The notes under the pieces are model-generated. The model saw only the letters and a list, made by a program, of their open reading frames with translations, was not told the origin of the DNA and did no database searches. Both the position numbers and the translations under genes were made by a program. A stretch of DNA of 63,972 nucleotides, the filler included, from Globobulimina sp. (taxonomy: Eukaryota), in the NCBI GenBank assembly GCA_003354225.1. It is 24 parts of 24 records of this genome, joined end to end, with 100 filler letters (N's around TTAATTAATTAA, not from the genome) between each part and the next. Parts side by side here need not be neighbours in the genome. Positions count along the whole stretch, not along the records: positions 2,673 to 5,243 come from PIVH01005923.1; 23 more parts are not named here. One strand, given 5' to 3'. Below, piece after piece: positions 2,673 to 37,290 of this stretch. Positions within the stretch are counted from its first letter, which is position 1, and every line of letters starts with the position of its first letter.

Positions 2673-2805
2673 GTTACTAGTTACTATCGAATAATAACAC
2701 TTTTTTGATTTGTTAATTTTGAACATGCAGTACTGTAAAGGAAATGTAATTAAATAAATGAGGCACCACCACCGTGCAACAAGACGTCATTTAATACCAA
2801 AAAAG

Positions 2806-4983
2806 TCAATCCTTGGTTGCACGTAAGAATGATCGGTTGGTTAATGTTGTTTGAGTGTTTGCAATGGAACGTCGATATCCTGACTGGCATATATTAAATT
2901 TATGTCTCATTTGTTCAATAAATTGCTTATCGCCAACAACAAATCCACATATTTCGCGGATTAACCACGTACAGTCCATATTGTTTAATTTAAATTGTTT
3001 CAATGCATTTGTTATAATGTGTCGTGAATGATACATCCAATTAAAAACAATCGAGCTGGCATCAAACAATCGAGCTGACCTATTCTTATATAATTCATCT
3101 CTTTCACCAATAAGCATAAATGATATTATTTTGCGATTACCAGAGATATTCTCTGTATTATTCTTAATGTTTACTTTACAAACTTGATGATAACATAATT
3201 CGTTATGGAATACAACACAGCTTCCTTCCTTTATATTTATTTCTATTTCATCCATATTTCGAGGCTGAGCCATTTTATTAAAAGCATAAAGTTTTAACTC
3301 TCCACCATTTATATTGTCAGAAATGTCATAATAATACAATCCAACACCAATGATGTTTTCATATAAACCTTCACAATGTATTGGACCCTCATACATGTCG
3401 TTGTTATTTAAAATATGCAAATCTTGTATTTTAACAATAACTCGCAATGCAACCTCACATAAATTATATTCTGTAATCAATTCAAATTTTGGCACCATTT
3501 TAAGAAATAAATTTGTTAATGATTTATAAATTGTATCCGTATATAAGTATGGATTTAAATTTGGTATTTCCGATAATAATTTACATTCTGTTTTATCTTT
3601 ATTCACATAAAAAAAGGATGGTATCCATTGATGGAAATTATATGAACGGTCACTGTATTTTTCATCAAATAAATGTGAAAAAGATGACAAATGTTTGTCC
3701 GGATCAACTAAACCATAAATACTCCACGATCCAATCGCTGATTCTCTTCGTTTAGTAATGTCTTGATCACATTTTTGATATTCATTCAAATAACATTTCA
3801 ATTGATTATGTTCGTTTGGAGACAACAAATTATTTTCAAAGTGTGCGATTTTGTCTCTTTCAGTGGGGAAACTACTGTATAAATTAGTCATTGTTCCGTA
3901 ATATATTTGTTCAGAAACATTATTATTTTCCTTCGTACCTTGCATATTATTGATATGCTGATCATATTTTTTATTAAATTTCTCAAACTGCACTCCGAAA
4001 CATTTTGCAATCCAGTTTGATGTGCAACAAATGTTTGCTCCACGATCAGCATAATAAATACGGCTTACTCCACGAAGATCTTCAATGTTATTAATAAACT
4101 GCTTACTATCGACCATTTGCAATCCATTCTGCTCCATTACAATGATGTAATCACAGCCAGCATTATAAAGAGCCATTAGTTCTTCACCACAAATAATATC
4201 TCTTCTGGTTATCACAAAAATTGCCGGCCATTCATCCACTAAAACTCGAATGAAATCAATATTGTGACATTTATTATCCATTGCTGTCGGTTTCCAATTA
4301 TTTATATTTTCTCTGCAATCATTAATCATATTTATGAAACACTCTTCTTTGGTATTTAAAGTATGATGCCATGCATCAATAATTAATGATTTATTTGTGT
4401 GCGGTAATTTCGTTTTAAATGCATATTTATTGTGTAATTCGAATTGCTGTACATATGGATTTACATTAAAAGTATTATATTCATTTTGAAACAATTCAGT
4501 ACCAATATATTGTCCAATAATGGTATGTTTGGGAATATTTATTAATGCTTTAACTCCACATTCTCCATTTAATGATTGTATTCTTTTGTGTTTTCGAATT
4601 CGTTGTAATCTTATTATTTCATTCAATTTTTTTGTTTTTTTATTTAAGAATATCAACGAATTTTCAATACCATGTTGTGCACAATGCATTCCATTTAAAT
4701 CTAAATATTGTTTAATTAAAACCAAGTGATTTTGATAATTGTCTGATGCGTAATCATTATTCGGAGTTATTATGAACTTTGTATTTGGTTTATTTTGTTC
4801 ATTGGTAATATTAATATTATTTCTATATTTGTGTAATGAATCACTGCGTTGTATGTTGGTATCAGTTGAGATCAAACGAATGGTTGAGTACATATCATTG
4901 TTCATTTTCATTATTTTATTTGGTCTACTTGAGCTAGACGGCAATTCATATGCTGGATTGTTTCTTCGTTTTCTTTTTGGCAT
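2806..4983 (-). CDS. SET-domain + DUF4246 (2OG-Fe(II) oxygenase-like) fusion protein, 725 aa
   Basis: SET motifs: GVKALINIPKHTIIGQYIG, MINDCR, RDIICGEEL..LY. DUF4246-like motifs: LVDP, HQWIPS, SEIPNLNP, LRVIVKI, HCEG..ENIIGVGLYYYD, VVFHN...HQV, GNRKIISF. Confidence 0.75.
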   Translation of the reverse strand: MPKRKRRNNPAYELPSSSSRPNKIMKMNNDMYSTIRLISTDTNIQRSDSLHKYRNNINITNEQNKPNTKFIITPNNDYASDNYQNHLVLIKQYLDLNGMHCAQHGIENSLIFLNKKTKKLNEIIRLQRIRKHKRIQSLNGECGVKALINIPKHTIIGQYIGTELFQNEYNTFNVNPYVQQFELHNKYAFKTKLPHTNKSLIIDAWHHTLNTKEECFINMINDCRENINNWKPTAMDNKCHNIDFIRVLVDEWPAIFVITRRDIICGEELMALYNAGCDYIIVMEQNGLQMVDSKQFINNIEDLRGVSRIYYADRGANICCTSNWIAKCFGVQFEKFNKKYDQHINNMQGTKENNNVSEQIYYGTMTNLYSSFPTERDKIAHFENNLLSPNEHNQLKCYLNEYQKCDQDITKRRESAIGSWSIYGLVDPDKHLSSFSHLFDEKYSDRSYNFHQWIPSFFYVNKDKTECKLLSEIPNLNPYLYTDTIYKSLTNLFLKMVPKFELITEYNLCEVALRVIVKIQDLHILNNNDMYEGPIHCEGLYENIIGVGLYYYDISDNINGGELKLYAFNKMAQPRNMDEIEINIKEGSCVVFHNELCYHQVCKVNIKNNTENISGNRKIISFMLIGERDELYKNRSARLFDASSIVFNWMYHSRHIITNALKQFKLNNMDCTWLIREICGFVVGDKQFIEQMRHKFNICQSGYRRSIANTQTTLTNRSFLRATKD

Positions 4984-5079
4984 CGTTTAGAATTGATTTA
5001 CGAGCATGGCAAAAAAGAGCAGGACTTTGAAAAGGTTTTGAAAAGGTTTTTAAAAATTCAGTACTTATCGGAGACCCCT

Positions 5080-5234
5080 AATTGACTATGTCCAACTAAG
5101 TGATTTTCGAGACCGTTACATTTCATGTCTACACTTGTCTTTTAGATTGGCGATCCTAAATATGATTTTTACGAGAGAATTTCGTCTAAAAGTATCTACG
5201 ACGAATCAAAAATCATATTTAGGACAATCTAAAA
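5080..5234. repeat. Interspersed repeat copy (shared with 50541-50637) containing an imperfect inverted repeat
   Basis: 5080-5167 is nearly identical to 50541-50637. Arms 5140-5170 and 5208-5234 are imperfect reverse complements. Confidence 0.85.
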
Positions 5235-5343
5235 TCGACTCGTNNNNNNNNNNNNNNNNNNNNNNNNNNNNNNNNNNNNNNNNNNNNTTAATTAATTAAN
5301 NNNNNNNNNNNNNNNNNNNNNNNNNNNNNNNNNNNNNNNNNNN

Positions 5344-8416: not shown

Positions 8417-9547
8417 ATGTCAACTAAAAGAAGCAAACGCAAACGCAAACCAGAAAACGCGGATGCTTTGCAAAACAGCAACAAACGCCGCAGACTAAAC
8501 AACAATATACAGGATGCGAATACAAATAATAATGGAGTAGTAGCGGAAATATATTGTATTTGTCGGGAAGCAGATAATGGTGAACCAATGTTACAATGTG
8601 CTGATTGTTGTGAATGGTTTCATTTTAGTTGCCTGAAAATGGAAGAAAAATGCATTATTTATGAGACAGATTTTCATTGTCCTTTTTGCAACGATACGGA
8701 TAACAATAAAACCGAAAATATCTCAAATATTAATAATGAAGATATCACCGACGATGACGAAAAAGTGAAAACAAAACAAAAGAGTGTCGATTTGACGATT
8801 AATAAATTAAAAGACATTCAGAGTACAATAAATTCATTGCAAAATAACTTCGAGTCAGAACAAGATATTTTAGTACGTTCATTGAGAGAGAGATTAAAAA
8901 ATAAAACAAAAGCAATTATTGAATTAAAGGCGAAAATAAATGAATTAACAACAGATAAAAATAATTTATTGCGCGAGAACGAAATAAGAATTAAAGCTAA
9001 AAATGCAACAATCATCGAATTAGAAAAGAAAATAAATGAATTAACAACAGATAAAAATAATTTACTGCGCGAGCATGGAATAAAAATGAAAGCTATAAAT
9101 GACATATTACAGCAAAATGAAATACAAATTAACGAGTTGCAGAGTAAATTGATGCGCAAAGATGAGTTATTACGCGAGAATGAGATAAAATATGCTGTAA
9201 AAATCGAACAATGTCAAACATCGAAAAATAAATTGTTGCAATCGGACCAATCGGCAAATCAAATTAATGAATTACAAAAACAGTTTGATGGCAGTCATGA
9301 TAGTATTGACAGCCAAGAGACACAAAATACAGAAGCTTCAAATGCTACGCATGATATACAGGACAGTGAGGAGCAAAGGAATCATCTTAATGATAATGTG
9401 AATAATACAAAAAATAATAATAATACAAATGTTAATGATGAATCATCAGCCACAGAATGGTGGCAATGTGAAATGTGTTTGATTGAGAATGAACCAGAAG
9501 CAACATTTTGTGCTATTTGCACTGCGCCAAATACCCAAGTCCTATAA
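8417..9547 (+). CDS. PHD finger + coiled coil + RanBP2-type zinc finger nuclear protein
   Basis: PHD: YCICR...MLQCADCCEWFHFSC...FHCPFC. RanBP2 finger: WQCEMCLIEN....FCAICTAP. N-terminal basic NLS. A 96-bp (32-aa) internal duplication lies at about 8911-9100. Confidence 0.85.
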   Translation: MSTKRSKRKRKPENADALQNSNKRRRLNNNIQDANTNNNGVVAEIYCICREADNGEPMLQCADCCEWFHFSCLKMEEKCIIYETDFHCPFCNDTDNNKTENISNINNEDITDDDEKVKTKQKSVDLTINKLKDIQSTINSLQNNFESEQDILVRSLRERLKNKTKAIIELKAKINELTTDKNNLLRENEIRIKAKNATIIELEKKINELTTDKNNLLREHGIKMKAINDILQQNEIQINELQSKLMRKDELLRENEIKYAVKIEQCQTSKNKLLQSDQSANQINELQKQFDGSHDSIDSQETQNTEASNATHDIQDSEEQRNHLNDNVNNTKNNNNTNVNDESSATEWWQCEMCLIENEPEATFCAICTAPNTQVL

Positions 9548-16227: not shown

Positions 16228-16264
16228 TATTAGTTAGAAAAGATTTCTTGACAAAAAACCAAAT

Positions 16265-18430
16265 ATGAGCTTCGTCTCAGCATTTGAAAGCAGGCTGAAT
16301 CTAAATGCGGTCCAAGGATTAGTTAAGTTGGGCCATTACGAGAAGGAAGGTTTATCATTAGCGTTAGGAACTACATCATGGAATATTGTGATTATTTCTC
16401 CTCATTCAGCAATTCAAGAATCCGCATCTGGATCATCACTAAAAAAAAGATTAGCAATTAACCGTGATATTACCGCAATTGAAACAGCTAATTTTGATGA
16501 AAATATTGATATTTTATTAATTGGCACTACAACTAATTTGTTGGCATATAATGTTGAAACAAATTCGGATATATTTTACAAAGACATACCAGATGGAGTG
16601 AATTCAATTTTATTTTGTTCGGAATTGTCGCATTTTTCAAATGGTATAAAACAACCAATAGTTATTATTGGCGGTAATTGTTCAATTCAGGCATTTGATG
16701 GAATGGGAGAAGAAGTGTTTTGGACAGTTACTTCTGACAACGTTGTTTGTATGGTTTTGTGTGATATTGATAATGATGGAATAAATGAATTATTAATTGG
16801 TTCGCAAGATTGTACAATTAAGGCATTCAAAGGAGAACAAGTTATTTATTCAATAACAGAATCCGATGTAGTTACACATTTACAAAGTTTAGGCAATGAC
16901 TGTTATTCATATGCTTTAAAAAATGGAACCGTTGGAGTTTATGTTGGAAATACTAAATTATGGAAAATACAAAATAAAGAAAAAATAACTACGATGAATG
17001 CATATAATATTATTAGTGATAATGCACAAGAAACGATAAATTGTTTAATGGTTGGTTGGAGTAACGGTTTGATTGAAGCTCGAAAAATTGAAAACGGAAA
17101 AGTAATTTGGCGCAATTTAGTGATTGACGATAGATATTCAGACGAGAGCGTTGCTGGAATTGTTTGTGGTAATTTGCGCGGAAATGATAGAAGCAGAAAT
17201 TCCCAAATTATTACTGTATCAACGAAAGGTGTTTTAACTGCATGGATTCCAAAATTAAAATCAATTGATAATGAGAACGATTTTGAGAATAAAGAAGATA
17301 TAGAAACATTTATTATGGAAAGAGATGAGTTGCGCGACGAATTGAAATATTTACGATCAAATTTTAAAACCTTGTCTTCAGGAAATATGAATGATCCATC
17401 TCTTATTCCATCCAATACGGAAATATCATGTACTTTAACCCCATCCATTGAGAAAAAAAGATTATTATTAATTATGAATACAAATAATTGCACAGTAATT
17501 AAATCCGCAGTAATTTATGGCGATAAAGTATTTACGAATGGTTGTTTTATGTTAGTTCCATCAGAACCCAAATCATCAATAATTTTGCCATTAAAATTTG
17601 AAAAAGATTTGCAATGTAATTTATCAATCAAAGCCATTGTTGGTCATTTATCATCATCGCAAAACCATGTATTTGAACTTTCGCATCGAATTCCTCGCTT
17701 TGCATCTTATTTATATGTGGCAACGGCGTCAATTCCGAAAGGAAATCAAGCAATATCGTATACAACATTTGTTTGTTCGGAAAGAATAAACCGATTAATA
17801 TTGTGGCTGAATCAAGCATTTTTATTAGAATATGAACAAAATACCAAAAAAACAATTGATATCTCATTTGTGTCATTGCGAAATGGTGAATATATAACTT
17901 TGCAATGTGATCATAATCAAAATATTAAATTAATTACAGACAATATAAATTTGTGTGGCAATATAATACAAGATATTGCCCAATATTTAAGCATTACAGA
18001 ATTACAATCGGTATGTTATTTTAATGAACATTTTAAAGAGTTAAAAAATACCATGGTCAAAGTTGGGGAATATAATGATATTCGAAACAAATTAAGTGTT
18101 GATATTGCATCAAATACAGCAATTATTAAAAATTTAATTGTTAAATCACAAGATTCGAGAATTCAAAAAAATTATTCTTTATTTAAAAAACAATTTTCCC
18201 ATTTATTTGATATTAATAATGAAATGTGTTCAGAATTTATTAAGAGACAAAATAATCATAAAAATTTGATAAATTCATTAAAATTAATTAACAAAACAAT
18301 TGAACAAATCTCAAGATTGAGAGTTGGAAAATATCAAAAAATGACGGTTAGTTTAGCAAGACAAGCGGTCAAAACTAAGAATATTGATTCTTTAATAAAT
18401 GTGTTGCATTCTGTGTCATCTCAAGATTAA
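16265..18430 (+). CDS. BBS2: Bardet-Biedl syndrome 2 BBSome subunit
   Basis: LLAYNVETNSDIFYKDIPDGVN, IIGGNCSIQAFD..GEEVFWTVT.DNV, DIDNDGINELLIGSQD, HVFEL..RIPRF, ERINR...WLNQAF, RLRVGK; 721 aa. Confidence 0.95.
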   Translation: MSFVSAFESRLNLNAVQGLVKLGHYEKEGLSLALGTTSWNIVIISPHSAIQESASGSSLKKRLAINRDITAIETANFDENIDILLIGTTTNLLAYNVETNSDIFYKDIPDGVNSILFCSELSHFSNGIKQPIVIIGGNCSIQAFDGMGEEVFWTVTSDNVVCMVLCDIDNDGINELLIGSQDCTIKAFKGEQVIYSITESDVVTHLQSLGNDCYSYALKNGTVGVYVGNTKLWKIQNKEKITTMNAYNIISDNAQETINCLMVGWSNGLIEARKIENGKVIWRNLVIDDRYSDESVAGIVCGNLRGNDRSRNSQIITVSTKGVLTAWIPKLKSIDNENDFENKEDIETFIMERDELRDELKYLRSNFKTLSSGNMNDPSLIPSNTEISCTLTPSIEKKRLLLIMNTNNCTVIKSAVIYGDKVFTNGCFMLVPSEPKSSIILPLKFEKDLQCNLSIKAIVGHLSSSQNHVFELSHRIPRFASYLYVATASIPKGNQAISYTTFVCSERINRLILWLNQAFLLEYEQNTKKTIDISFVSLRNGEYITLQCDHNQNIKLITDNINLCGNIIQDIAQYLSITELQSVCYFNEHFKELKNTMVKVGEYNDIRNKLSVDIASNTAIIKNLIVKSQDSRIQKNYSLFKKQFSHLFDINNEMCSEFIKRQNNHKNLINSLKLINKTIEQISRLRVGKYQKMTVSLARQAVKTKNIDSLINVLHSVSSQD

Positions 18431-26608: not shown

Positions 26609-26818
26609 TGNNNNNNNNNNNNNNNNNNNNNNNNNNNNNNNNNNNNNNNNNNNNTTAATTAATTAANNNNNNNNNNNNNNNNNNNNNNNNNNNNNNNNNN
26701 NNNNNNNNNNAAAAAAAAAAAAAAAAAAAAACAAAAAAAATTATAGAATAAAAATTTTAATGAATAGTAATTTTAATTTAGTAAGATTTATATTACAAAA
26801 CATATCAAATTTTGGTTA

Positions 26819-29280
26819 TTATTTTTTTAAATGCGGCTGGATCACCGCGGTGCCCTCTTGCTGATAAACCGGCGCCGTATATGTTTTTAGCATATTTGGT
26901 TGTTTACTAACAATATGTTCCGATAAAATCCGTATTTTTGGCTTGATGCTCAACGCAATTTCCTTTTTTAATTTGCTATAATGATGGTAATGCGTAGCGA
27001 ACGCGCCATCGTAAGCTAACCGAGAACGGACATATACACATTTACTCGCTTGCCGCTGTGACGCAAACACACACAAAGCAGTCTTGCACTGCACCACCGG
27101 CCGCGGCGGCAAACCCAACAACAACTCTCGTAATCTCTGGTCATCCTTCAACAGCTTACTCCGCGCATCGTACTTCGAACACTGTTCCTCCGCCTTCGCC
27201 GCCGCACATTGCAGACAGACGCGATACGTCGGCGCCGTACCGGGGATTCGTTTGGGATGATAGTAGCCGTCCGAGCACGGCTTTTGTTTATGACACCAAT
27301 AACAATTGTACTGCTCTTGCTTATTATGCATGAAATTAAACTCCATGGTCATGGCCGCCGAGTCCTTACTCAACAACTTATACACCCGATGCTTCTCCAA
27401 CATTTTCTTCATAATCTGCCGGTCCAAAGTGTCCGGCCCGTGGTCGAAATGCACCTTCGTCACTCCGCCAAACGCATTCAACATGGAATAGATATACTTC
27501 TCGTCGCTGTACCACGGCAAGCCATAAATATACACACTCCTTCGGAACGGAAACTGTTTCTCGACGGGCGGCGTAAACTGGTTACGGCCGACAAACAAAG
27601 GATGAAATTGCGGCTCTTCCTTCTCTTTCTTCTCACCGTCGCCCTCACTCTTTTTCTCCACCACCAACACATGCACCGGCACCAGAGCCAGGGCCTGTTG
27701 CTGTATACAAACACCACAAAAGTCCGAAAACGTTCTCAAAAACGCTTTTCAAATCGTATAGAAACACACCTGTTGCTGCAGTAGTTTTTCTTCGTCGGGC
27801 AAAATCATATCGATATACGGCGACAATTTCAATGACTCATACAAGTGCCCCGACGAATTGCATAATTGCCGGACACGCGACAGACTCAACACGTCCTCCA
27901 CGGCAAGATAGCCCCTTCGCGGCTCCTTACATATCTTTTCCAATAAACGCTTATCCCGTTTCAAGTTATAATCACTGAAATAAAACTCGACCTGCGCGCG
28001 GATCAAATTCTGTTGGATCACGATCTCCGGCGGATACTCTTCCTGTCGCACCGCGCCATTCCCGTCGCCGGCGTCGCCGACCCCAATCTCGTCCTTATTG
28101 CTCTTGCTCGCCGCCAGGAAATTGTCGTGTCGCTGACTGTCCACATTCTCCTTCAGATTGTTGACAATCTCCGTCAACTCAATCACCTCCAACTCGAACT
28201 GCATGTTTTTGTTCTTGTTCATCTCTCGCTGCTTCTTGGCCAGATTCAGAGTCTTCCGAACATGCTCCAACTGCGCACGCAAATGCTTATGCATTACATC
28301 CGCAGACGCCGACGCGGCCATATTCTTCGTACGCAGTCGATCCACCTTAGCACGCACCGCAGGTTACACCCATACATACAAAAAATAGATAGATAAGTCA
28401 GACACCTGTCGGTTCAAAGAGGCTCTCTGTGCGCCCCAAAACTCCCTCATCTTGGCCTCATCCATCTCGCCCTCGTGCTCCAGGTCCTGCTGCAACGAGG
28501 TCTGTATGGCCAATTTCTCCATGACCGACGTGTTCAAAATCTTGTCGCGTTCTTGCTTGGTTTGCTGCAGCGCCCACTGCGTCCTCTTCGTCTTGGACTC
28601 GGTGGCCGTGATTTGCTTCTCCAGCTCGCTCAGCTCTTTTTTAATTAATTTCAACTGTTGGTTCAGATCAAACACAGCGAAGTCGAAGCCGCTCGATAAT
28701 GCCATTAATTGCGTCTCGTACTCGAGCTGTTGCTGTTGCTGCGTCACCATGTCCATATTCATATTGATGTTGAGCTCCATCGACGGAGAGCTGCAGTTAT
28801 TGGCAGCGCCGCGCTTATTCTTCTTCTTTTTCTTCTGTTTCTTGCGTATGTGCTCTCTCTGAGACTGCGCCGGTGCCTGTAACCGGTACGGATTATATGG
28901 GTGAGGGTGCGCGCGTTTTTGTGCTATGGGTGGCTGTGTGGGCGGGATCACGTAATGCGGGTAATAGGCCTGGTTGACGTGGCTGTATACGGAGGCGTGG
29001 TTTTCGTCGTAGGTCAACGGCGTGGTTTTGGCGTAGATTAAGTTGGTGGGTAAGCCTAAGATATCCGCGGCCGTGTCGTCGGCGAGCGTGGCGTTAAAGG
29101 GCGGCGTCAGTGGCAAGGCGTTGATGTTTAAGTCGCGTTCGATATCGCGCATGGCCTTGGCATCCGGCTCAGAGTATTGCCGTTGTAGAGAGAATTTGGG
29201 CGATTCTGGGAATTCTTTCACCTCTGCTTTGTTGCTATCGATTTGCGCTAATTCTGCAGAGTTGGGAGTGTCCAATTTGG
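26819..29280 (-). CDS. La-related RNA-binding protein (coiled coil + La motif + RRM with inserted Cys4 module); introns 28346-28405 and 27701-27769
   Basis: La motif IRAQVEFYFSDYNLKRDKRL...GYLAVEDVLSLSRVRQL. RNP2 SVYIYGLP and RNP1-like TALCVFAS. Both introns are phase 0 GT-AG. Confidence 0.85.
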
Positions 29281-29380: not shown

Positions 29381-31136
29381 CCAATCCGCCAATTATGCAA
29401 TTTCCATTAGGCGTAACTCATGCAATCACACTGCAAACCTCTGATGCCGATGGCGATGTAGTAAAATGTAGAAAATCAACAGACGCTCTCTCTCGTATAA
29501 CTGGACTGGATTCTACCAATCATTTTAGTTACGTTTTTTTTTATACAATGCTGTATGTATCATTTTGACTTTTTTTCTTTTCGTGTGGTGTTAATTAGGT
29601 ATTTCAGAGCAATGCGTATTAACCGGTAATTTACCATCAATTGGCACTACCTGGAATTTTAAGACCGTGGTTCAAGGCAGCAAATGGGCCACACAGTATT
29701 TTGTATTTACGGAAGATGCGTCCGGTAATGAAATGGATCGAACTGCCGTTGATTTTATAATGGAGGGTATTGACGGTTTGCCGCCAGTTTGCGCCTTGTT
29801 AACAGCGGGACCCTTCGAAGTGGAGGTTGGCGGCGCAGTGTCCATTGCTTTTGGAGTAAGTTCGCCCGATGTGATGGCATCGTCGTTGAATATTAATGTG
29901 ATCAGCATTCCAAGCACCAGCAGCGAGGTAATGCCATCTTTAATACCTGGGCATGGAACATCTGTTGACATCTCGTCTGGATCGGGAATAATTTCCTATG
30001 CCGTAGCGATCAGTGGCAGTGCATCGGCGTTAATTGGCTCGGACGTTGGCGTTTCTTTTGAAATAATCGATCCAAACACCGGCTTTACAACAGCCTGTGC
30101 TGCCGCAGTAACCGTAGTTTTTTCAGATGCAGACGGTGATGGCATAGCGGATGGCAGTGATAACTGCCCAGGCACAGCAAATGCGGACCAATTAGATACG
30201 GATATGGACGGTGCAGGCGATGCGTGCGATGTTTGTCCTTTGGATAACCCAAATGACTCGGATGGTGATTTTGTGTGCGATTCCGACGATAACTGTCCAG
30301 GCACAGCAAATCCAGACCAATTGGACACAGATATGGACGGTGTGGGCGATGCGTGTGATATTTGCCCATTGGATAACCCAAATGACTCGGATGGTGACGG
30401 TGTGTGCGATTCAGACGATAACTGTCCATTGGATGCAAATGCGGACCAATTGGACACAGATATGGATGGTTTCGGCGATGCGTGTGATATTTGTCCGTAC
30501 GACGCGCTCAACGATATTGATAATGACGGCGTCTGTGGCGATGTGGATAACTGTCCATTGCATGCAAATGCCGGTCAGTGTGATTTTGACGAGGATGGCT
30601 ATGGCGATGCTTGTGATTCGTGTGTTTTTGCCGGAGCCAACGACCCGGATCGGGATAATGACGGAGTTCCAGACGCATGCGATATGTGTCCCGGATTTGA
30701 CGATAGTTTGGATGCGGACGGAGATGGTATACCCGATGCTTGTGATATTTGCCCAGGCTTTGATGGTCCAGAGAGTGGCGATAATTATGCAGATGCGGAT
30801 AATGACGGAGTGCCTGACTGTATCGATAATTGTGTGAATGTGGCGAATGCAGATCAAGCAGATATTGATGGAGATGGCAAAGGCGATGCATGTGACCATG
30901 ACCAAGCGTGTTGTGTCGATGACTGTGGTGTTGTGGCGGATGGCTATTACCAATCATGCAACGGCTGTCATGTTTATGTAACGTGTTCGAATGGCATTTT
31001 ATATGATAATCGGCCGTGCCCTGTTTCTTGGGATGGCATTCCACAGTTATTTTGGGATGATACTATCAAAGGATGTGTTTATGAATCGGCCACATGTGAT
31101 TGTACCGGAGTTGTTCAATCAATGCCTTGTCACTAA
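29381..31136 (+). CDS. Thrombospondin type-3 (Ca-binding) repeat protein with C-terminal chitin-binding type-2 (CBM14-like) domain; 5'-truncated; probable intron about 29495-29598
   Basis: Many DxDxDGxGDACD and DNCP..AN.DQ repeats. C-terminal C..VADGYYQSCNGCHVYVTCSNG...RPCP...LFWDDTIKGCVYESATC. Confidence 0.85.
30159..30545 (+). repeat. 129-bp (43-aa) coding tandem repeat, about 3 copies
   Basis: gataactg(c/t)cca recurs at 30159, 30288 and 30417. Confidence 0.85.
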
Positions 31137-32398: not shown

Positions 32399-34620
32399 TT
32401 ACTTTAAGTTATTTAACAAGTCATGGATTCTCTGTTTAATTTTGTCATCGTCACAATTCGCTTTAATCGTTTGTAGCGCATCAAAATCCTTATCATCCAC
32501 GGCAACATCGACTGCATCGTTCCAGAATTTTAATTGGCACAGCCACTCTAACTTCTCATCAATATCCGATAATTTCAAAATATATTTCTTCGCATAGGCA
32601 GTCTTATCAATCTCTAGAAAAGCTTCAATAATCGGCAAATATCCAACCGGTGGCGGTCTCCGTACAGTGGTATTCTTATCAATATATCTCGACAACTTCT
32701 CCCATTGTTTACATTCCATATAAGATTTAATCAAAACAAACCACCATCGTCTATCCGAAATAAACAATTCTTTTTTGATTTTTTCCGCAAATCCCTCCTC
32801 CCCCAACTCCAACATGACAGATATCGTATCATTGACAGACAATCCTAATGTGGCTATGGCGCTATCCCCGCCACCGCCGCTTATCAGCATTTTCTTATCA
32901 AATTCCTTTTGAAATATAATCATTCTTTTCAAATCAGAGCACATTTGCACATTAAACTTATTCCGCACTTTCTCATAATTCTTAGTCGCACTCTCCAAAT
33001 AAGTAAAACATTTATTTGTGTCATCATTGTGATCCTCGCCAGAGCCCATATCGCCTAATCCAATGTTTCCATTCTTCAGCAACAATATACATTTTTTGAG
33101 ATTAATCCGCGACAATAAATGCATATTCTCCTGCTGATAGGGTATAAATTCATCCTTTGTGTTCGTCAAAAACTTATGTAACAATTGTTTGTAATGTTGA
33201 TTGCTTTCGTCTTCATTCTGCAACAAATCAATATAAGTTTGCAGCAATATATTATTCAACACCGCATTAAACGGCGAGTCTCCACTCTGGTTATTAATTT
33301 TATTATTTTCATATATGATTTCAAATAACTTATACCACGTTTTATTATCATTATATTTACTGATCAACTCAATCAATGTCTGATTAATCAAATTAATGTT
33401 CAACGAAACAATCGATTTCTTCAAAGCAACGATGTATTGTTCAAACTCAATCAGCGAATTAATTTGGATCTTGCTCCGTGGCTCATAGTCCAATAACAAC
33501 TTCGCCAAATCCACCGATCGTTTCTGTGCACAACGCGCTATTTTCGCGTAACTGAAATCATTGCTGAACTGCAATATTTTCTTGCGAATAATATCCACCA
33601 ACACGTGGTCAGTTATGTGTCTTTGGCTGCTTTCAATCTTACAAATGCACCAATGTTCCAACGCAGCATTCACACAAAATGATAAATTCAAATATTTACT
33701 GATCTTAATTGCTAATAAATGCTTCTTCCGATTGATCAATCGTTGCACCACAATCTGTGGCGTCAGAATTTCGAACTGCGTGTAGGTCAAAGGCATACCG
33801 ATATTAATATTGCGGATCGAATTCAACACTCTCAAAAACCGGCAAGTTTCCACAAACCGATCGCAATCAAATAACTCCTGATTGGGTATGAATAACTTTC
33901 CATACTTACAGGCACGTAATAACTTTATTTGATACTCTATAATCTCCAGCTCATACTTTGCTGCATCCAAACAATCCACCACTGCATCTTCCATGTTGTC
34001 CACCGATATCTGTCTCCTATGGCTGTCCGCTCGCGCATCGCCAATATCAAAGTCCTCAAAACTGTCATATAACAACGACGCCGGTTCACGCGAACCATAA
34101 CTAAATATATCCTGTGTACAAAAGGGCACAATGCTCAATACCTCGCAGGTTGTATTCGTTATAATGCGTATACTGTCGATCTCTGGTATTAATATGATGC
34201 GATTCGAGGCTGTCGCAGTAGAACTGGGGTATGGATACGGTATAAATTCATTACTCGAAGCCACAATGATCTGATCATTGTTGAATAATAACACCACTGC
34301 ATCGCTACCACACCACTCCATGGCCAACGGCTGTTTTTTAGCTTTCACGCTGAAATTACTGGCTTGTTTCTGGAAGTTACGCGTCGCCACAATTAAATTC
34401 ATATTCTCATCGAAGATGGCAATCATACGGCCATTGGCCGACACACACATTCGCATAATAGCTCCGCCCCGATGCTGTAATAAGTTGGTGATGTTACTGC
34501 GAGAGATACAATATATGCCACCATCGCCCGTCGATATTAATACTTGAATGTCGTTGTCGTCATCATTCGATTTGCTGTCATCATTTTTGTTGATATTTTT
34601 GTTGATTTCTGGGTTGATTA
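32399..34620 (-). CDS. VPS16: Vacuolar protein sorting 16 (HOPS/CORVET), 5'-truncated
   Basis: MEWCGSDAV, PEIDSIRI, IFSYGSREPASLL, LRVLNSIR..IGMPLTYTQF, RLINRKKHLLA, HWCICKI, LLDYEP, LSVNDT, SDRRWW, PPVGYLP. Confidence 0.93.
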
Positions 34621-34937: not shown

Positions 34938-37290
34938 ATGAGCAAATGGTTAAGCAGGTTATCCAAAGGAGGAGGTAATCCCTCAAAATCATCCAAATCC
35001 TCAAAACATACAAAAAAGCGACGCAAAGACTACGACGGTGATAATATCAACGACATGAAACGCGGCGGATCTGTAATGGACGAAGACAGCGATAATGAGG
35101 AGGAATACTACCACGACAATCATAACAACGCAGCATACAATGGCTATAATAACAACAACAACCACACCAACAACAACAACGCCACACATCAATATACAAA
35201 CAATGGAGACAATAAATACATGCCGCAACACATGACCGCCTCTCGCGCATTAACCAAATCCGGCAATAAATTGTACGTCGGCGACAAGATCTTATTAGCC
35301 AATAAACGCAGCGGTAAGGTCACGAGTTTAGGCCCCAAGCCCGACAAAGAAGGCATATGGGTACGCGTGGTCATGGACGCTCCGCAGGAATATTACTCCA
35401 AAGACAATCGCTCCTCGAAAAACAAGACCATTTGGGTGCCCATCCAACGCGTCGACAAGATACTGACCCAAGGCAACAAATTCGACCTCACCATCGATGA
35501 CCGCGTGACTGGGCGCAAAAAGGGCATCTCTGGCACTATAAAGTACGTCGGACCCACCCATTTCGAGAAGGGAGTGTGGTTTGGCGTGGCTCTCGACACT
35601 GCCAAGGGCAAAAATAACGGCACCGTCAAGAAGAAGTTCTACTTTCTATCTGAGCCAAACCATGGCGTAATGTTACCGTATAAACGATTAGGTATATTTC
35701 TGCTATTTATTTATTTTTACGCAATTTCGCAGATAGGTACTTATATATATTGCATTCTGTGAAAAGAGCACGAGAATCGCTCCAAGAAAGCCATCAAGAA
35801 AAGAAACGTCCGCTCGCGGTCCAACAATTTCGATAAGAATCGAGAGCGCGAAAAGAATGGCATGGCTCGCAACCATAGCTCGCACCAAAAAACACAAAGT
35901 GACGGCATTGGCATTGTCAACAAAGGCTATTTGACTCAGCAGTTGCAATTAGAGCAACATATTCTTGATCGAGAGCAACAGCAACAGCAACAACAGCAGA
36001 TTCTGGAAGAGATGAACCATCATCACACCAAACAATCGAACTCGAACTCGAATTCCAATTCAAATTCGCATTCAAATGACTATGCAGAGTATATCGAAGA
36101 CGACATCGACCACAACGACGAGAACAACCTGAATGGCACCAATAATAACAACAAGACGCCTTCGTCCGACAGCGAGGAGAGAATGTTTATGACTCCGTCC
36201 ACCTCTCCAAAGAAGAAAAAAGAAACTGTTGCGGTGAAGTTGACGCCGAAGGAGAAGACGCCGTTCGTGGGATGGATGAAATTGGTGTCCGGCGAGTTGG
36301 TGACGTCGGAGGACATGAAGCAGGAATCCATGGAAGTGACGCCTTCGCCGCAACCGCAGGCCTACAACTTGGAGGAGGACGAGCAGACCGTACTGATCTT
36401 GACGCAGTTCCTGGCCGAATTGCGCAAGTTTAGCGGCATCGAGAAGGAGTTGTTTGAGTCGAATTTGCCGTCGATTACCGAGGTGAACAAGGAGCAGCGA
36501 GAGAGCATCTTCATCGATAAGCTGTATCTATGCCAATGCAAATGCGACTTCTTCGATACCTCTGACGGTCAGATCGAGTTAATCGAGAAAAAGGAGAGAA
36601 TGCTATTAGAACTGTCCGAGTTCATAGCGCGCCACGTCTGGTTCAAAGAGTCTTTGTATGAGAAGTGTTTGGTGACAGTGTCTTGCAACTTATTTCGCGC
36701 CCTGCCATATCAGGATCGGCCGCCTGCTTTGTCCTTCTTCAACGACGAAGTGTTCGACAAAGACACCAACTTCGAGGACCCGGCCTGGAGGCACCTTAAA
36801 TTGGTGTACGATTTGACGTGGCGAGTGATCAATACACCGCAAGTGACGGCGGCCATGATGGAGAAGCATATGACGGGCAAGTTTTTGGGCAATTTGGTCG
36901 AGCTGTTTGCCTCTGAGGACCATCGCGAACGCGCCTATTTGATGATGATATTGCATAAAATCTACGGCCGCTGTCTCAAGTTACGGCCCTATATTATTGA
37001 GATTATGTCGTCGTACTTCTATCGTATGATATATTACGATGAATTCAAACACGTTAATGGTATTATTGAGTTATTGCAGATTATATGTGCTATTATACCC
37101 GGATTGACTGTGCCGGTCAAGGATTCCTGGCAATGTTTTGTACGCAATATATTGGTGCCGCTGCATAAGGTATGTCTTATTTGTGCGAATTTGCGTATAA
37201 TGATAGTGGATTTTGGACTTTTCAGTGTCGCGGACTTAAGAAGTTCTGGGAGCAGTTGACGCAATGTTGCGTCAATTATGTGGCCAAAGA
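34938..37290 (+). CDS. CAP-Gly domain(s) + PP2A B56 (B') regulatory subunit fusion; introns 35692-35766 and 37170-37225; 3'-truncated
   Basis: CAP-Gly: GTIKYVGPTHFEKGVWFGVALDTAKGKNNGTV. B56: FIDKL..C...CDF, NLFRALP, EDPAWRHLKLVY, LFASEDHRERAYL...LHKIYG, HVNGIIELL, ILVPLHK. The phase-1 intron joins the two ORFs in frame. Confidence 0.85.

Follow-up and report, generated by a model that had tools for sequence, protein, structure and literature searches.

Fusions that place a SET lysine methyltransferase and an Fe(II)/2-oxoglutarate (2OG) dioxygenase in one chain have been described in the JMJD2/KDM4 family, where SET fused to a JmjC dioxygenase is tabulated (Iyer, Abhiman, de Souza and Aravind 2010, PMC2938197). 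These fusions are like the protein reported here in combining a SET lysine methyltransferase with a dioxygenase of the double-stranded beta-helix (DSBH) fold. Their oxygenase is a member of the JmjC/JOR superfamily with a known lysine-demethylase chemistry, whereas the present protein carries DUF4246 with an Arg-type 2OG site. The term DUF4246 and its InterPro and PANTHER identifiers occur in no paper of the literature searched. An earlier note on this DNA knew of no description of the pairing. This holds for the DUF4246 partner, which was found in no paper, but not for the wider combination of SET with a JmjC-type 2OG dioxygenase, which is already tabulated in PMC2938197.

The SET half of the present protein (the query) resembles SETD8/KMT5A, ATXR5/6, NSD2 and Legionella LegAS4 in its SET fold (Z 11.4-12.5), its Gly motif and its EELxxxY Tyr. 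It differs in that its family has N-D-C-R for NHSC and a long helix instead of a Cys-rich post-SET. An N-terminal Gly-rich SAM motif and an E-L-x-x-x-Y catalytic Tyr are hallmarks of SET domains, and the canonical cofactor motif is N-H-S-C (N-H-S/x-C). The oxygenase half is alike in fold to PHD2/EGLN1, other prolyl 4-hydroxylases (P4Hs), HrmJ, IDO and a BsmA homolog (Z 12.7-15.3, 176-206 residues aligned), with which it shares only 8-17% identity. PHD2 has a His-x-acid...His triad followed by an Arg about 10 residues past the distal His, and the acidic iron ligand of PHD2/P4H, HrmJ, IDO and BsmA is Asp. Unlike these enzymes, the query has Glu as its acidic ligand and long family-specific helical additions at the N- and C-terminal sides.

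Here we describe the SET-DUF4246 gene, found in an assembly of Globobulimina sp. (GCA_003354225.1), and compare each of its halves with known enzymes. Our preferred reading, to which we give an even chance, is that of two enzymes in one chain acting on one protein substrate. The N half would be a SET-domain protein lysine methyltransferase from a large lineage-specific family. The C half is predicted to be a classical PHD/P4H-like, not JmjC, Fe(II)/2OG dioxygenase.

The window is the whole stretch of 63,972 nucleotides that was analysed and consists of 24 separate contigs of 2566-2572 bp each, joined by N44-TTAATTAATTAA-N44 spacers. Because the contigs are unrelated, no gene neighbourhood can be read around the ORF; the gene is alone on its contig, and its apparent neighbours in the window are not neighbours. 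The claim of an intronless ORF of 725 residues was borne out, as the minus strand holds a single open frame (Table 1) with an in-frame TAA two codons 5' of its ATG. At the contig's GC content of 0.299 about 0.08 stops are expected per random codon, and by our own arithmetic the chance of an open frame of 725 codons is about 1e-26. The gene is real, intact and contained in one exon, and it belongs to an AT-rich protist, probably a foraminifer.

Table 1. Features of the SET-DUF4246 gene, with positions counted along the window and residues along the protein.
Feature	Position	Strand	Basis or remark
Gene-bearing contig, 2571 bp	2673..5243	.	Artificial N44-TTAATTAATTAA-N44 spacer on each side; N-run/piece table and sequence
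Uninterrupted ORF P0001, 725 aa	2806..4983	-	Stop codon at 2806-2808
Basic cluster PKRKRR, residues 2-7, NLS-like	4963..4980	-	Absent from other copies of the gene
Family-specific N-flank of SET, residues about 31-135	4579..4893	-	Conserved in SET-side relatives; confidently modelled
SET domain, residues 143-273	4165..4557	-	PF00856 and fold matches
N221-D222-C223-R224, family version of the SET NHSC cofactor motif	4312..4323	-	A3 alignment
Y273, Tyr of G-E-E-L-x-x-x-Y, putative SET catalytic Tyr	4165..4167	-	Y in 69/72 and F in 3 rows of A3
Long helix after SET, residues 276-303	4075..4158	-	Model secondary structure; pLDDT 76-82 for residues 271-300
Low-confidence linker, residues about 304-373	3865..4074	-	Overlaps variable patch 4005-4095, which extends into the preceding helix
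DUF4246 domain, DSBH 2OG/Fe(II) oxygenase fold (predicted), residues about 374-648	3040..3864	-	PF14033 and model
H536-C-E538, first two iron ligands (HxE, predicted)	3370..3378	-	A2: H 75/78; E 71/78 and 4 D
H599, distal iron ligand (predicted)	3187..3189	-	A2: H 72/73
R617, presumed 2OG C5-carboxylate ligand	3133..3135	-	A2: R 67/73 and 3 K
C-terminal helical extension, residues 649-715	2839..3039	-	Common to closest relatives; helices at model residues 309-375

The nuclear location suggested earlier from an N-terminal NLS is not supported. The basic cluster is present, but the nuclear reading comes from this cluster alone and other copies of the gene are without it. These copies have a different 5' end, with loose ends at 4924/4932. 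The region 5' of the ATG is repetitive, with a depth spike of 405.9 in run X5 at 4995-5080 and many loose ends. The N-terminus of one relative, P0026, opens with a similar basic run.

No other protein with this architecture was found. SET and DUF4246 occur together in 0 of 152 relatives, and a SET match at E<=0.01 was found in 0 of 81 oxygenase-side relatives. The DUF4246 family alignment (A2, 82 rows), used as a profile, matched nothing among proteins of 1526-4355 aa and, among those of near-query length, two proteins that are both DUF4246 only; these protein searches for longer or near-length fusions were word-indexed and could not survey architectures. Related loci were found neither in the metagenome contigs scanned nor in the viral contigs scanned. 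On the SET side, the relatives have SET at the C-terminus after a variable N-terminal part, and none has an oxygenase after it. In a few the N-terminal part contains a module that can be recognised, either CAP-Gly, chromo or a weak, sub-threshold coiled-coil.

The oxygenase side has N-terminal partners of another kind. An N-terminal [FYW]D[LIV]CxxC finger is present in 6 of the 16 close relatives inspected, although all Pfam ZZ matches are sub-threshold (best 18.7 bits vs 21.4), and one oxygenase relative is fused to ubiquitin. ZZ fingers read the tails of histones and the N-termini of proteins. A quick tree, from which 17 of the 82 A2 rows were left out for coverage <70%, places the query in a 12-row clade (SH-aLRT 95). 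This clade includes a protein of the foraminifer Ammonia, and 4 of its other 11 rows have a ZZ-like finger. The ZZ-finger-DUF4246 proteins P0002-P0006 of foraminifera are 35-42% identical to the query over the C-terminal 350 residues and fall in the same clade; P0005 is labelled Ammonia (taxid 29189). They share with the query the HxE...H...R residues and the C-terminal helical tail ending in Asp. They differ from it in having no SET; at the N-terminus they have a ZZ-like Cys/His finger (FDLCxxC), or else no domain could be recognised there.

The SET domain had been placed at about 4580-4140, in agreement with the Pfam match (PF00856), which scored 25.5 bits in the whole-protein scan and 27.5 bits when the N half was scanned alone, a small margin over the gathering cutoff of 22.4. 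The AlphaFold model of the N half has a pLDDT of 81.4. Its nearest folds are SETD8 (Z 12.5, rmsd 3.5, 152 aligned), NSD2 (12.4), ATXR5 (12.3) and LegAS4 (11.4), with a best Foldseek E of 4.5e-6, and nearly all of its neighbours are methyltransferases for lysines of histones or other proteins. The family extends beyond the Pfam domain: SET-side relatives align from query residue about 31, residues 31-140 form a block of pLDDT 81-97, and the structural alignments with NSD2, Set2 and DIM-5 begin at model residue about 42. A profile of the SET-side family alignment (A3, 72 rows) matched sequences of solved structures with E from 6e-11 (LegAS4) to 7e-5, ATXR5/6, EHMT2 and KMT5A also being among the matches.

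The motifs of the putative SAM pocket are partly canonical. The query has the Gly-rich motif (G140 and G143 in 59/72 rows each, G161 in 72/72) and G266-E-E-L-M-A-L-Y273, and the Gly residues of the former and the Tyr of the latter, together with N221 and N241, are kept at 59-72 of 72. In the cofactor motif Asn is kept and His is lost (N221, D222 and R224 in 72/72 rows, C223 in 55/72). With N-D-C-R in place of N-H-S-C, the activity of the SET half is not assured. It may be that only one half is an enzyme and that the SET-like half, with N-D for N-H, is a non-catalytic peptide or lysine binder that aims an active DUF4246 domain at its protein substrate, much as the ZZ finger would do in the sister proteins. 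Besides the invariant departure from NHSC, this reading draws on the 9 of 72 A3 rows that also match the PR-domain model PF21549, many PR-domain proteins being weak or inactive, and on the position of the SET module, which sits where relatives of the oxygenase hold the ZZ-like finger. We consider it unlikely, since the conserved Gly-rich motif, N221, N241 and Tyr are as expected of an active pocket and the family profile matches the active methyltransferases LegAS4, ATXR5 and KMT5A.

The C half (residues 341-725), scanned alone, matches Pfam DUF4246 (PF14033) at 53.3 bits over a cutoff of 26.7 (E 3.3e-14); in the whole-protein scan there was no PF14033 match at E<=1. The four closest relatives score 41.7-47.9 bits, and 72 of the 82 A2 rows match the model. 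The motifs earlier read as those of DUF4246 (VIVK, ENI...LYYYD and QWIPS) are real and conserved in A2, and the query has WIP, VIVK, HxEG, ENI and YYY. The counts are W453 60/71, I454 49/71 and P455 65/71 (Q452 was uncounted); V515 64/78 and K518 67/78; E542 70/79 and I544 75/79; and Y550 75/80, Y551 74/79 and, for the third Tyr, Y552 35/79. Motif residues are thus kept in 60-75 of 71-80 filled rows, except I454 and Y552. The metal/2OG layout proposed from HCEG, a distal His and an Arg proved sound: H536, E538, H599 and R617 are intact and conserved in the family, and the DSBH fold is matched. R617 lies 18 residues past H599, compared with 11 in the closest relatives (alignment A1), the difference being a loop insertion of 7 residues.

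The model of the C half (pLDDT 81.9, pTM 0.84) matches 118 chains at Z of at least 8. Its nearest folds are HrmJ (Z 15.3, rmsd 3.1, 194 aligned), the BsmA homolog (14.6), IDO (14.4) and PHD2 (14.2), followed by the prolyl hydroxylases Trichoplax PHD (13.2), P4H/EF-Tu (12.8) and Dictyostelium PHD (12.7), so that the PHD/P4H scores are within 1-2 Z of HrmJ, BsmA and IDO. Foldseek gave E 1.6e-8 to 1e-6 for HrmJ, Dictyostelium PHD, IDO and PHD2. All but one of the 50 structural matches listed are titled as 2OG oxygenases or homologs; the odd entry, 8fnc, is a trypanosomal RNA-editing complex. Few matches cover the C-terminal extension, their rows spanning model residues 21-308. Sequence comparison found no solved relative, as the best row of the A2 profile against PDB sequences was a chance match (E 1.1) and phmmer with the whole protein gave 0 matches at E<=1. 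Two general Pfam oxygenase models stayed below their cutoff of 27 (2OG-FeII_Oxy_3 at 24.0 bits, 2OG-FeII_Oxy_4 at 13.8). The HMM and AlphaFold checks suggested in the earlier note thus came out in its favour, with PF00856 and PF14033 above cutoff and both half-models matching the expected folds.

The fold leaves room for more than one substrate. The protein could be a metabolic enzyme, with an oxygenase that acts on a free amino acid or small molecule, a SET half that methylates a non-chromatin target, and a fusion that has nothing to do with chromatin. HrmJ and IDO, which are among the top structural neighbours, have free amino acids as substrates, DUF4246 is without a known substrate, and the basic N-terminus is not conserved among the copies. 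With HrmJ and IDO within about 1 Z of protein prolyl hydroxylases, a protein substrate is not established. Yet the same tie brings PHD2, Trichoplax PHD and P4H/EF-Tu level with the amino-acid enzymes, the SET neighbours are almost all protein-directed, and the ZZ-like fingers and the ubiquitin of sister DUF4246 proteins are protein-directed modules. We regard a metabolic role as quite unlikely.

A writer-eraser reading would have DUF4246 strip N-methyl groups from lysine by AlkB/JmjC-type chemistry while SET marks another residue, a swap of marks as in the JMJD2-SET fusions. Those fusions are its precedent (PMC2938197), both active sites of the query look intact, and AlkB-family N-demethylases are in the fold neighbourhood (FTO Z 12.4, ALKBH7 12.3, NMAD-1 11.5, AlkB 11.2, ALKBH5 10.5). 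The nearest folds are nevertheless hydroxylases and amino-acid oxidases. There was no Pfam match to a JmjC or AlkB-type family at E<=1 for the whole protein or E<=0.01 for the C half, no JmjC entry among the 50 structural matches or the Foldseek matches listed, and no DUF4246 member with a known activity in the literature searched. Such a swap of marks is very unlikely. A related proposal is that DUF4246 proteins are protein- or chromatin-directed oxygenases and that, in tandem with SET on the same lysine, the domain either demethylates, as a non-JmjC, PHD-like enzyme, or hydroxylates the methylated side chain to give a composite mark. This too is very improbable; if it were true, one polypeptide would write and re-write a histone mark. 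The nuclear enzyme coupling methylation with oxidation or demethylation that had been suggested earlier keeps its two domains, through their HMMs, folds and residues, but its eraser part is not supported, with the hydroxylases nearest (Z 12.7-15.3) and the AlkB family behind (10.5-12.4).

The junction of the two halves falls in the least confident part of the models (pLDDT <50 at residues 306-324 and 330-340 of the N-model and 1-28 of the C-model). Support across the linker (about 4100-3750), which the earlier note had asked for, is given by independent contigs, including a diverged copy. One contig each from runs X1 (record 3, 1034 nt, 3302-4335) and X5 (record 11, 837 nt, 3494-4330) bridges it with 1 mismatch. 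X8 record 24 (1862 nt) and X6 record 19 match both sides at about 96% identity; the RNA label of these two runs is a guess. As X8 record 24 spans 3104 to 4924, most of both domains are on one contig. The junction is thus covered by contigs of four runs from four studies, two near-identical and two about 4% diverged, and is physically continuous, not a chimera.

The diverged copy retains both domains with frame-preserving indels only. Each of the four indel events or patches changes the length by a multiple of three (+15, -6, 89 replaced by 50 or -39, and +9), the replacement of 89 letters by 50 lying at the variable patch 4005-4095. Substitutions were counted for 40 of 118 differences, of which 38 are within the ORF, with rows of several runs pooled, the near-identical copy included. 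Of the 22 that lie outside the indel-rich patch 3068-3103, 11 are synonymous, each read singly, a weak sign of constraint from a partial list. Of the 16 inside it, 2 are synonymous and one is a stop when taken by itself (3072); single-codon reading is meaningless there because of 9 inserted letters. One might suspect that two genes were joined in the assembly, or that the ORF is a degenerating pseudogene copy in a genome rich in repeats, from the short contig of a very fragmented assembly, the repetitive DNA 5' of the ATG and the several copies with different 5' ends, but with bridging contigs, indels in multiples of three, a frame of 725 codons open in 30% GC DNA and all catalytic residues kept, such an artefact is largely ruled out and has a negligible chance.

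In the preferred reading of two enzymes in one chain, the two halves would share one protein substrate, most probably a histone tail or other nuclear protein, a function suggested by the company of the domains. The SET half would methylate a lysine, and a neighbouring side chain would be the target for oxidation by the oxygenase half, with hydroxylation likelier than methyl removal. The fusion may have arisen within a DUF4246 clade by exchange of the N-terminal module, which in the rest of the clade is a ZZ-type zinc finger. The N-terminal module would aim the oxygenase at a protein.

The finding concerns one lineage-specific gene, on a 2.6-kb contig, in an experimentally difficult protist. 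For JmjC, fusions between methyltransferase and dioxygenase are already known, and what is new is the partner, DUF4246. Together with the ZZ-finger and ubiquitin-fused relatives, the gene provides a testable lead: DUF4246 would be a PHD/P4H-like oxygenase family whose N-terminal module directs it to proteins. The SET-DUF4246 fusion hints that DUF4246 oxygenases act on proteins. An independent second fusion, involving another oxygenase family, would mean that methylation and oxidation have been coupled within one chain on more than one occasion.

The uninterrupted 725-codon reading frame reported in the earlier note was recovered on the second contig of the window (2673-5243, 2571 bp, GC 0.299). 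Its first ATG after an in-frame TAA is at 4983, the TAA being two codons upstream. By our own arithmetic the chance of an open frame this long is ~1e-26, as ~8% of random codons are stops at 30% GC. The 5' flank is repetitive, with a depth peak of 405.9 at 4995-5080 in the public sequencing run X5 and many loose ends at 5036-5167. Two more loose ends, at 4924 and 4932, reveal copies of the gene with a different 5' end, their sequences departing from this one upstream of residue ~17-20. Thus the PKRKRR stretch previously read as a nuclear localization signal is present, but the start that carries it is not a conserved feature.

The N-terminal half (residues ~1-330) contains the SET domain described earlier. 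Pfam SET matched residues 143-273 in the whole-protein scan (25.5 bits, cutoff 22.4) and reached 27.5 bits when the half was scanned alone. A confident AlphaFold2 model built with the family alignment (pLDDT 81.4, pTM 0.79) structurally matches lysine methyltransferases of histones and proteins (SETD8 Z 12.5, NSD2 12.4, ATXR5 12.3, LegAS4 11.4, Set2 11.3; Foldseek E 4.5e-6). The sequence profile of the 72-row SET-side alignment matched the solved structures of LegAS4 (E 6e-11) and ATXR5/6 (about 8e-7). In this alignment 65 rows match SET and none of the 72 matches an oxygenase family. The canonical SET cofactor motif is N-H-S-C. Here it is N-D-C-R (N, D and R each 72/72), which places the SET half in a divergent, expanded family. 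The 71 representatives of that family (among P0014-P0152) share an invariant I-N-D-C-R motif and form a separate SET subfamily, expanded and uncharacterised. The SET domain is C-terminal in those scanned, and a few have extra modules (CAP-Gly, chromo, RanBP zinc ribbon, C2H2). The altered motif would also fit a non-catalytic SET half, which we consider unlikely; the SAM pocket looks intact except for N-D in place of N-H, with conservation of the Gly-rich motif (G140 and G143 59/72 each, G161 72/72), N221 and N241 (72/72 each), and Y273 of G-E-E-L-x-x-x-Y (Tyr in 69/72, Phe in 3). Methyltransferase activity is plausible, not assured.

The C-terminal half (residues 341-725) gave no match to PF14033 (DUF4246) at E<=1 when the whole protein was scanned, and 2OG-FeII_Oxy_4 was sub-threshold (13.8 bits). 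Scanned alone it scored 53.3 bits (cutoff 26.7; E 3.3e-14), so the initial miss was a matter of the whole-sequence scan and not of membership. In low-complexity proteins encoded by AT-rich DNA, a clear domain can escape a whole-protein scan. A confident AlphaFold2 model with the family alignment (pLDDT 81.9, pTM 0.84) shows a classical 2OG/Fe(II) double-stranded beta-helix. In the 82-row DUF4246-side alignment 72 rows match PF14033 and none of the 82 matches SET. The WIP, VIVK, ENI and YY motifs are conserved there, as is the proposed layout of H-x-E, distal His and Arg: H536 (75/78 filled rows), E538 (71/78, with Asp in 4 more), H599 (72/73) and R617, the presumed 2OG ligand (67/73, Lys in 3). 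The iron/2OG site is intact. A helical tail (residues 649-715) is matched by few structural rows, and the linker (residues ~304-373) is without confident structure in either model.

The best VIA-align rows for the C-half model were HrmJ (Z 15.3, rmsd 3.1, 194 aligned), a BsmA homolog (14.6), IDO (14.4) and PHD2 (14.2), followed by other prolyl hydroxylases (12.7-13.2), Tpa1/OGFOD1 (12.1-12.5) and, lower down, NgTET1 (11.8). Foldseek was concordant (E 1.6e-8 to 1e-6), and the DUF4246-family sequence profile found no solved relative. A quick maximum-likelihood tree of 65 of the 82 rows (17 were dropped for coverage <70%) put the query in a starred 12-row clade (SH-aLRT 95) with P0002-P0010, P0012 and P0018, of which P0005 is labelled as coming from the foraminifer genus Ammonia (taxid 29189). 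In 4 of the 11 other clade rows and in 6 of 16 close relatives inspected, the N-terminus bears a Cys/His finger with FDLCxxC, the signature of ZZ fingers; the Pfam ZZ matches of these fingers are all sub-threshold. The SET module of the query occupies the place of this finger. One DUF4246 relative is fused to ubiquitin. Another, P0026 (508 aa), begins MPKRKKNKKGKKK, a basic N-terminus resembling the query's MPKRKRR.

ZZ fingers recognise histone tails and the N-termini of proteins. Because ZZ-like fingers occur in the sisters and the structural neighbours of the SET half methylate lysines in histones and other proteins, we read the query as a bifunctional protein-modifying enzyme, probably located in the nucleus, in which the N-terminal module would steer the oxygenase to a protein substrate. 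We give the two-enzyme reading an even chance. The nearest C-half structures hydroxylate prolines in proteins and free amino acids, which favours hydroxylation over the demethylation considered earlier. The free amino acid hydroxylases among them would also suit a small-molecule enzyme, a reading we regard as improbable. A true writer-eraser is quite improbable: AlkB-type demethylases lie only 2-3 Z below the top matches (FTO, ALKBH7 and AlkB 11.2-12.4), but the nearest structures are hydroxylases and JmjC entries are absent among the structural matches listed.

Contigs assembled from public runs were aligned to the contig of the gene. The linker is bridged, with one mismatch each, by an X1 contig (1034 nt, 3302-4335) and by an X5 contig from another study (837 nt, 3494-4330); one near-identical run may be the assembly's own source. 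Two further studies supplied a diverged copy: an X8 contig (1862 nt) spans 3104-4924 at ~96% identity, covering most of both domains, and an X6 contig (967 nt) of similar identity bridges the linker at 3325-4330. All indels are multiples of three (+15 at 4730, -6 at 4806, 89 letters to 50 at 4005-4095 in the linker, +9 within the loop patch 3068-3103). Since the diverged copy is independent, a chimera or other artefact is very unlikely.

A word-indexed search returned four proteins, matching the C-terminal half only (35-38% identity), and all four pass PF14033 (41.7-47.9 bits). An exhaustive phmmer search of 1.84 billion representatives gave 460 matches at E<=1e-3, the best 150 of which were examined. 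With the halves scored separately on 152 relatives, 71 match residues 1-330 only, 81 match residues 341-725 only and no relative matches the two halves together, even with the limit relaxed to E<=10. A two-domain protein would collect the score of each half and stand high in the ranking, so the fusion is judged absent from the searched representatives, which do not include the query gene itself (no self-match).

The 63,972-base window consists of 24 separate, unrelated, length-sorted contigs of 2566-2572 bp with N44-TTAATTAATTAA-N44 spacers between them (e.g. 2573-2672, 5244-5343). The GFAT-like ORF to the left is on a different contig, so the fusion gene has no readable gene neighbourhood, and 'neighbouring genes' read across pieces are invalid. 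Ordinary eukaryotic proteins, each in a long open frame, are found on the remaining pieces; among them are an ABC-2 transporter and those tabulated. The BBS2 frame indicates ciliary or flagellar machinery in the source organism. GC of the pieces spans 0.29 to 0.48, and a different source is possible for the high-GC ones (e.g. 26711-29280, GC 0.483).

Open reading frames of the window and the basis of their assignment
Feature	Position	Strand	Basis
SET-DUF4246 fusion, 725 codons without interruption	2806-4983	-	open frame
Chromatin-type protein with PHD finger and RanBP-type zinc ribbon, separate contig	8417-9544	+	26.1 bits for the finger; 23.3 bits for the ribbon (under cutoff)
BBS2 (BBSome subunit), full-length 730 aa, single open frame	16238-18427	+	five BBS2 Pfam domains, E 1e-30 to 8e-19
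Thrombospondin type-3 repeats, long open frame, own contig	29595-31133	+	E 1e-32
Vps16, long open frame, own contig	32402-34618	-	N and C regions
PP2A B56 subunit, own contig	35763-37256	+	long open frame

The earlier note knew of no description of the pairing. None of the papers whose main texts were searched mentions DUF4246, IPR025340 or PTHR33119, and SET with DUF4246 is undescribed as far as the searches reach. SET fused to a 2OG dioxygenase is published, in a table of PMC2938197, for the JMJD2/KDM4 family, where the dioxygenase is JmjC and not DUF4246. The fusion of SET to a 2OG dioxygenase is thus already known, and DUF4246 as the partner is what is new, within the reach of these searches.
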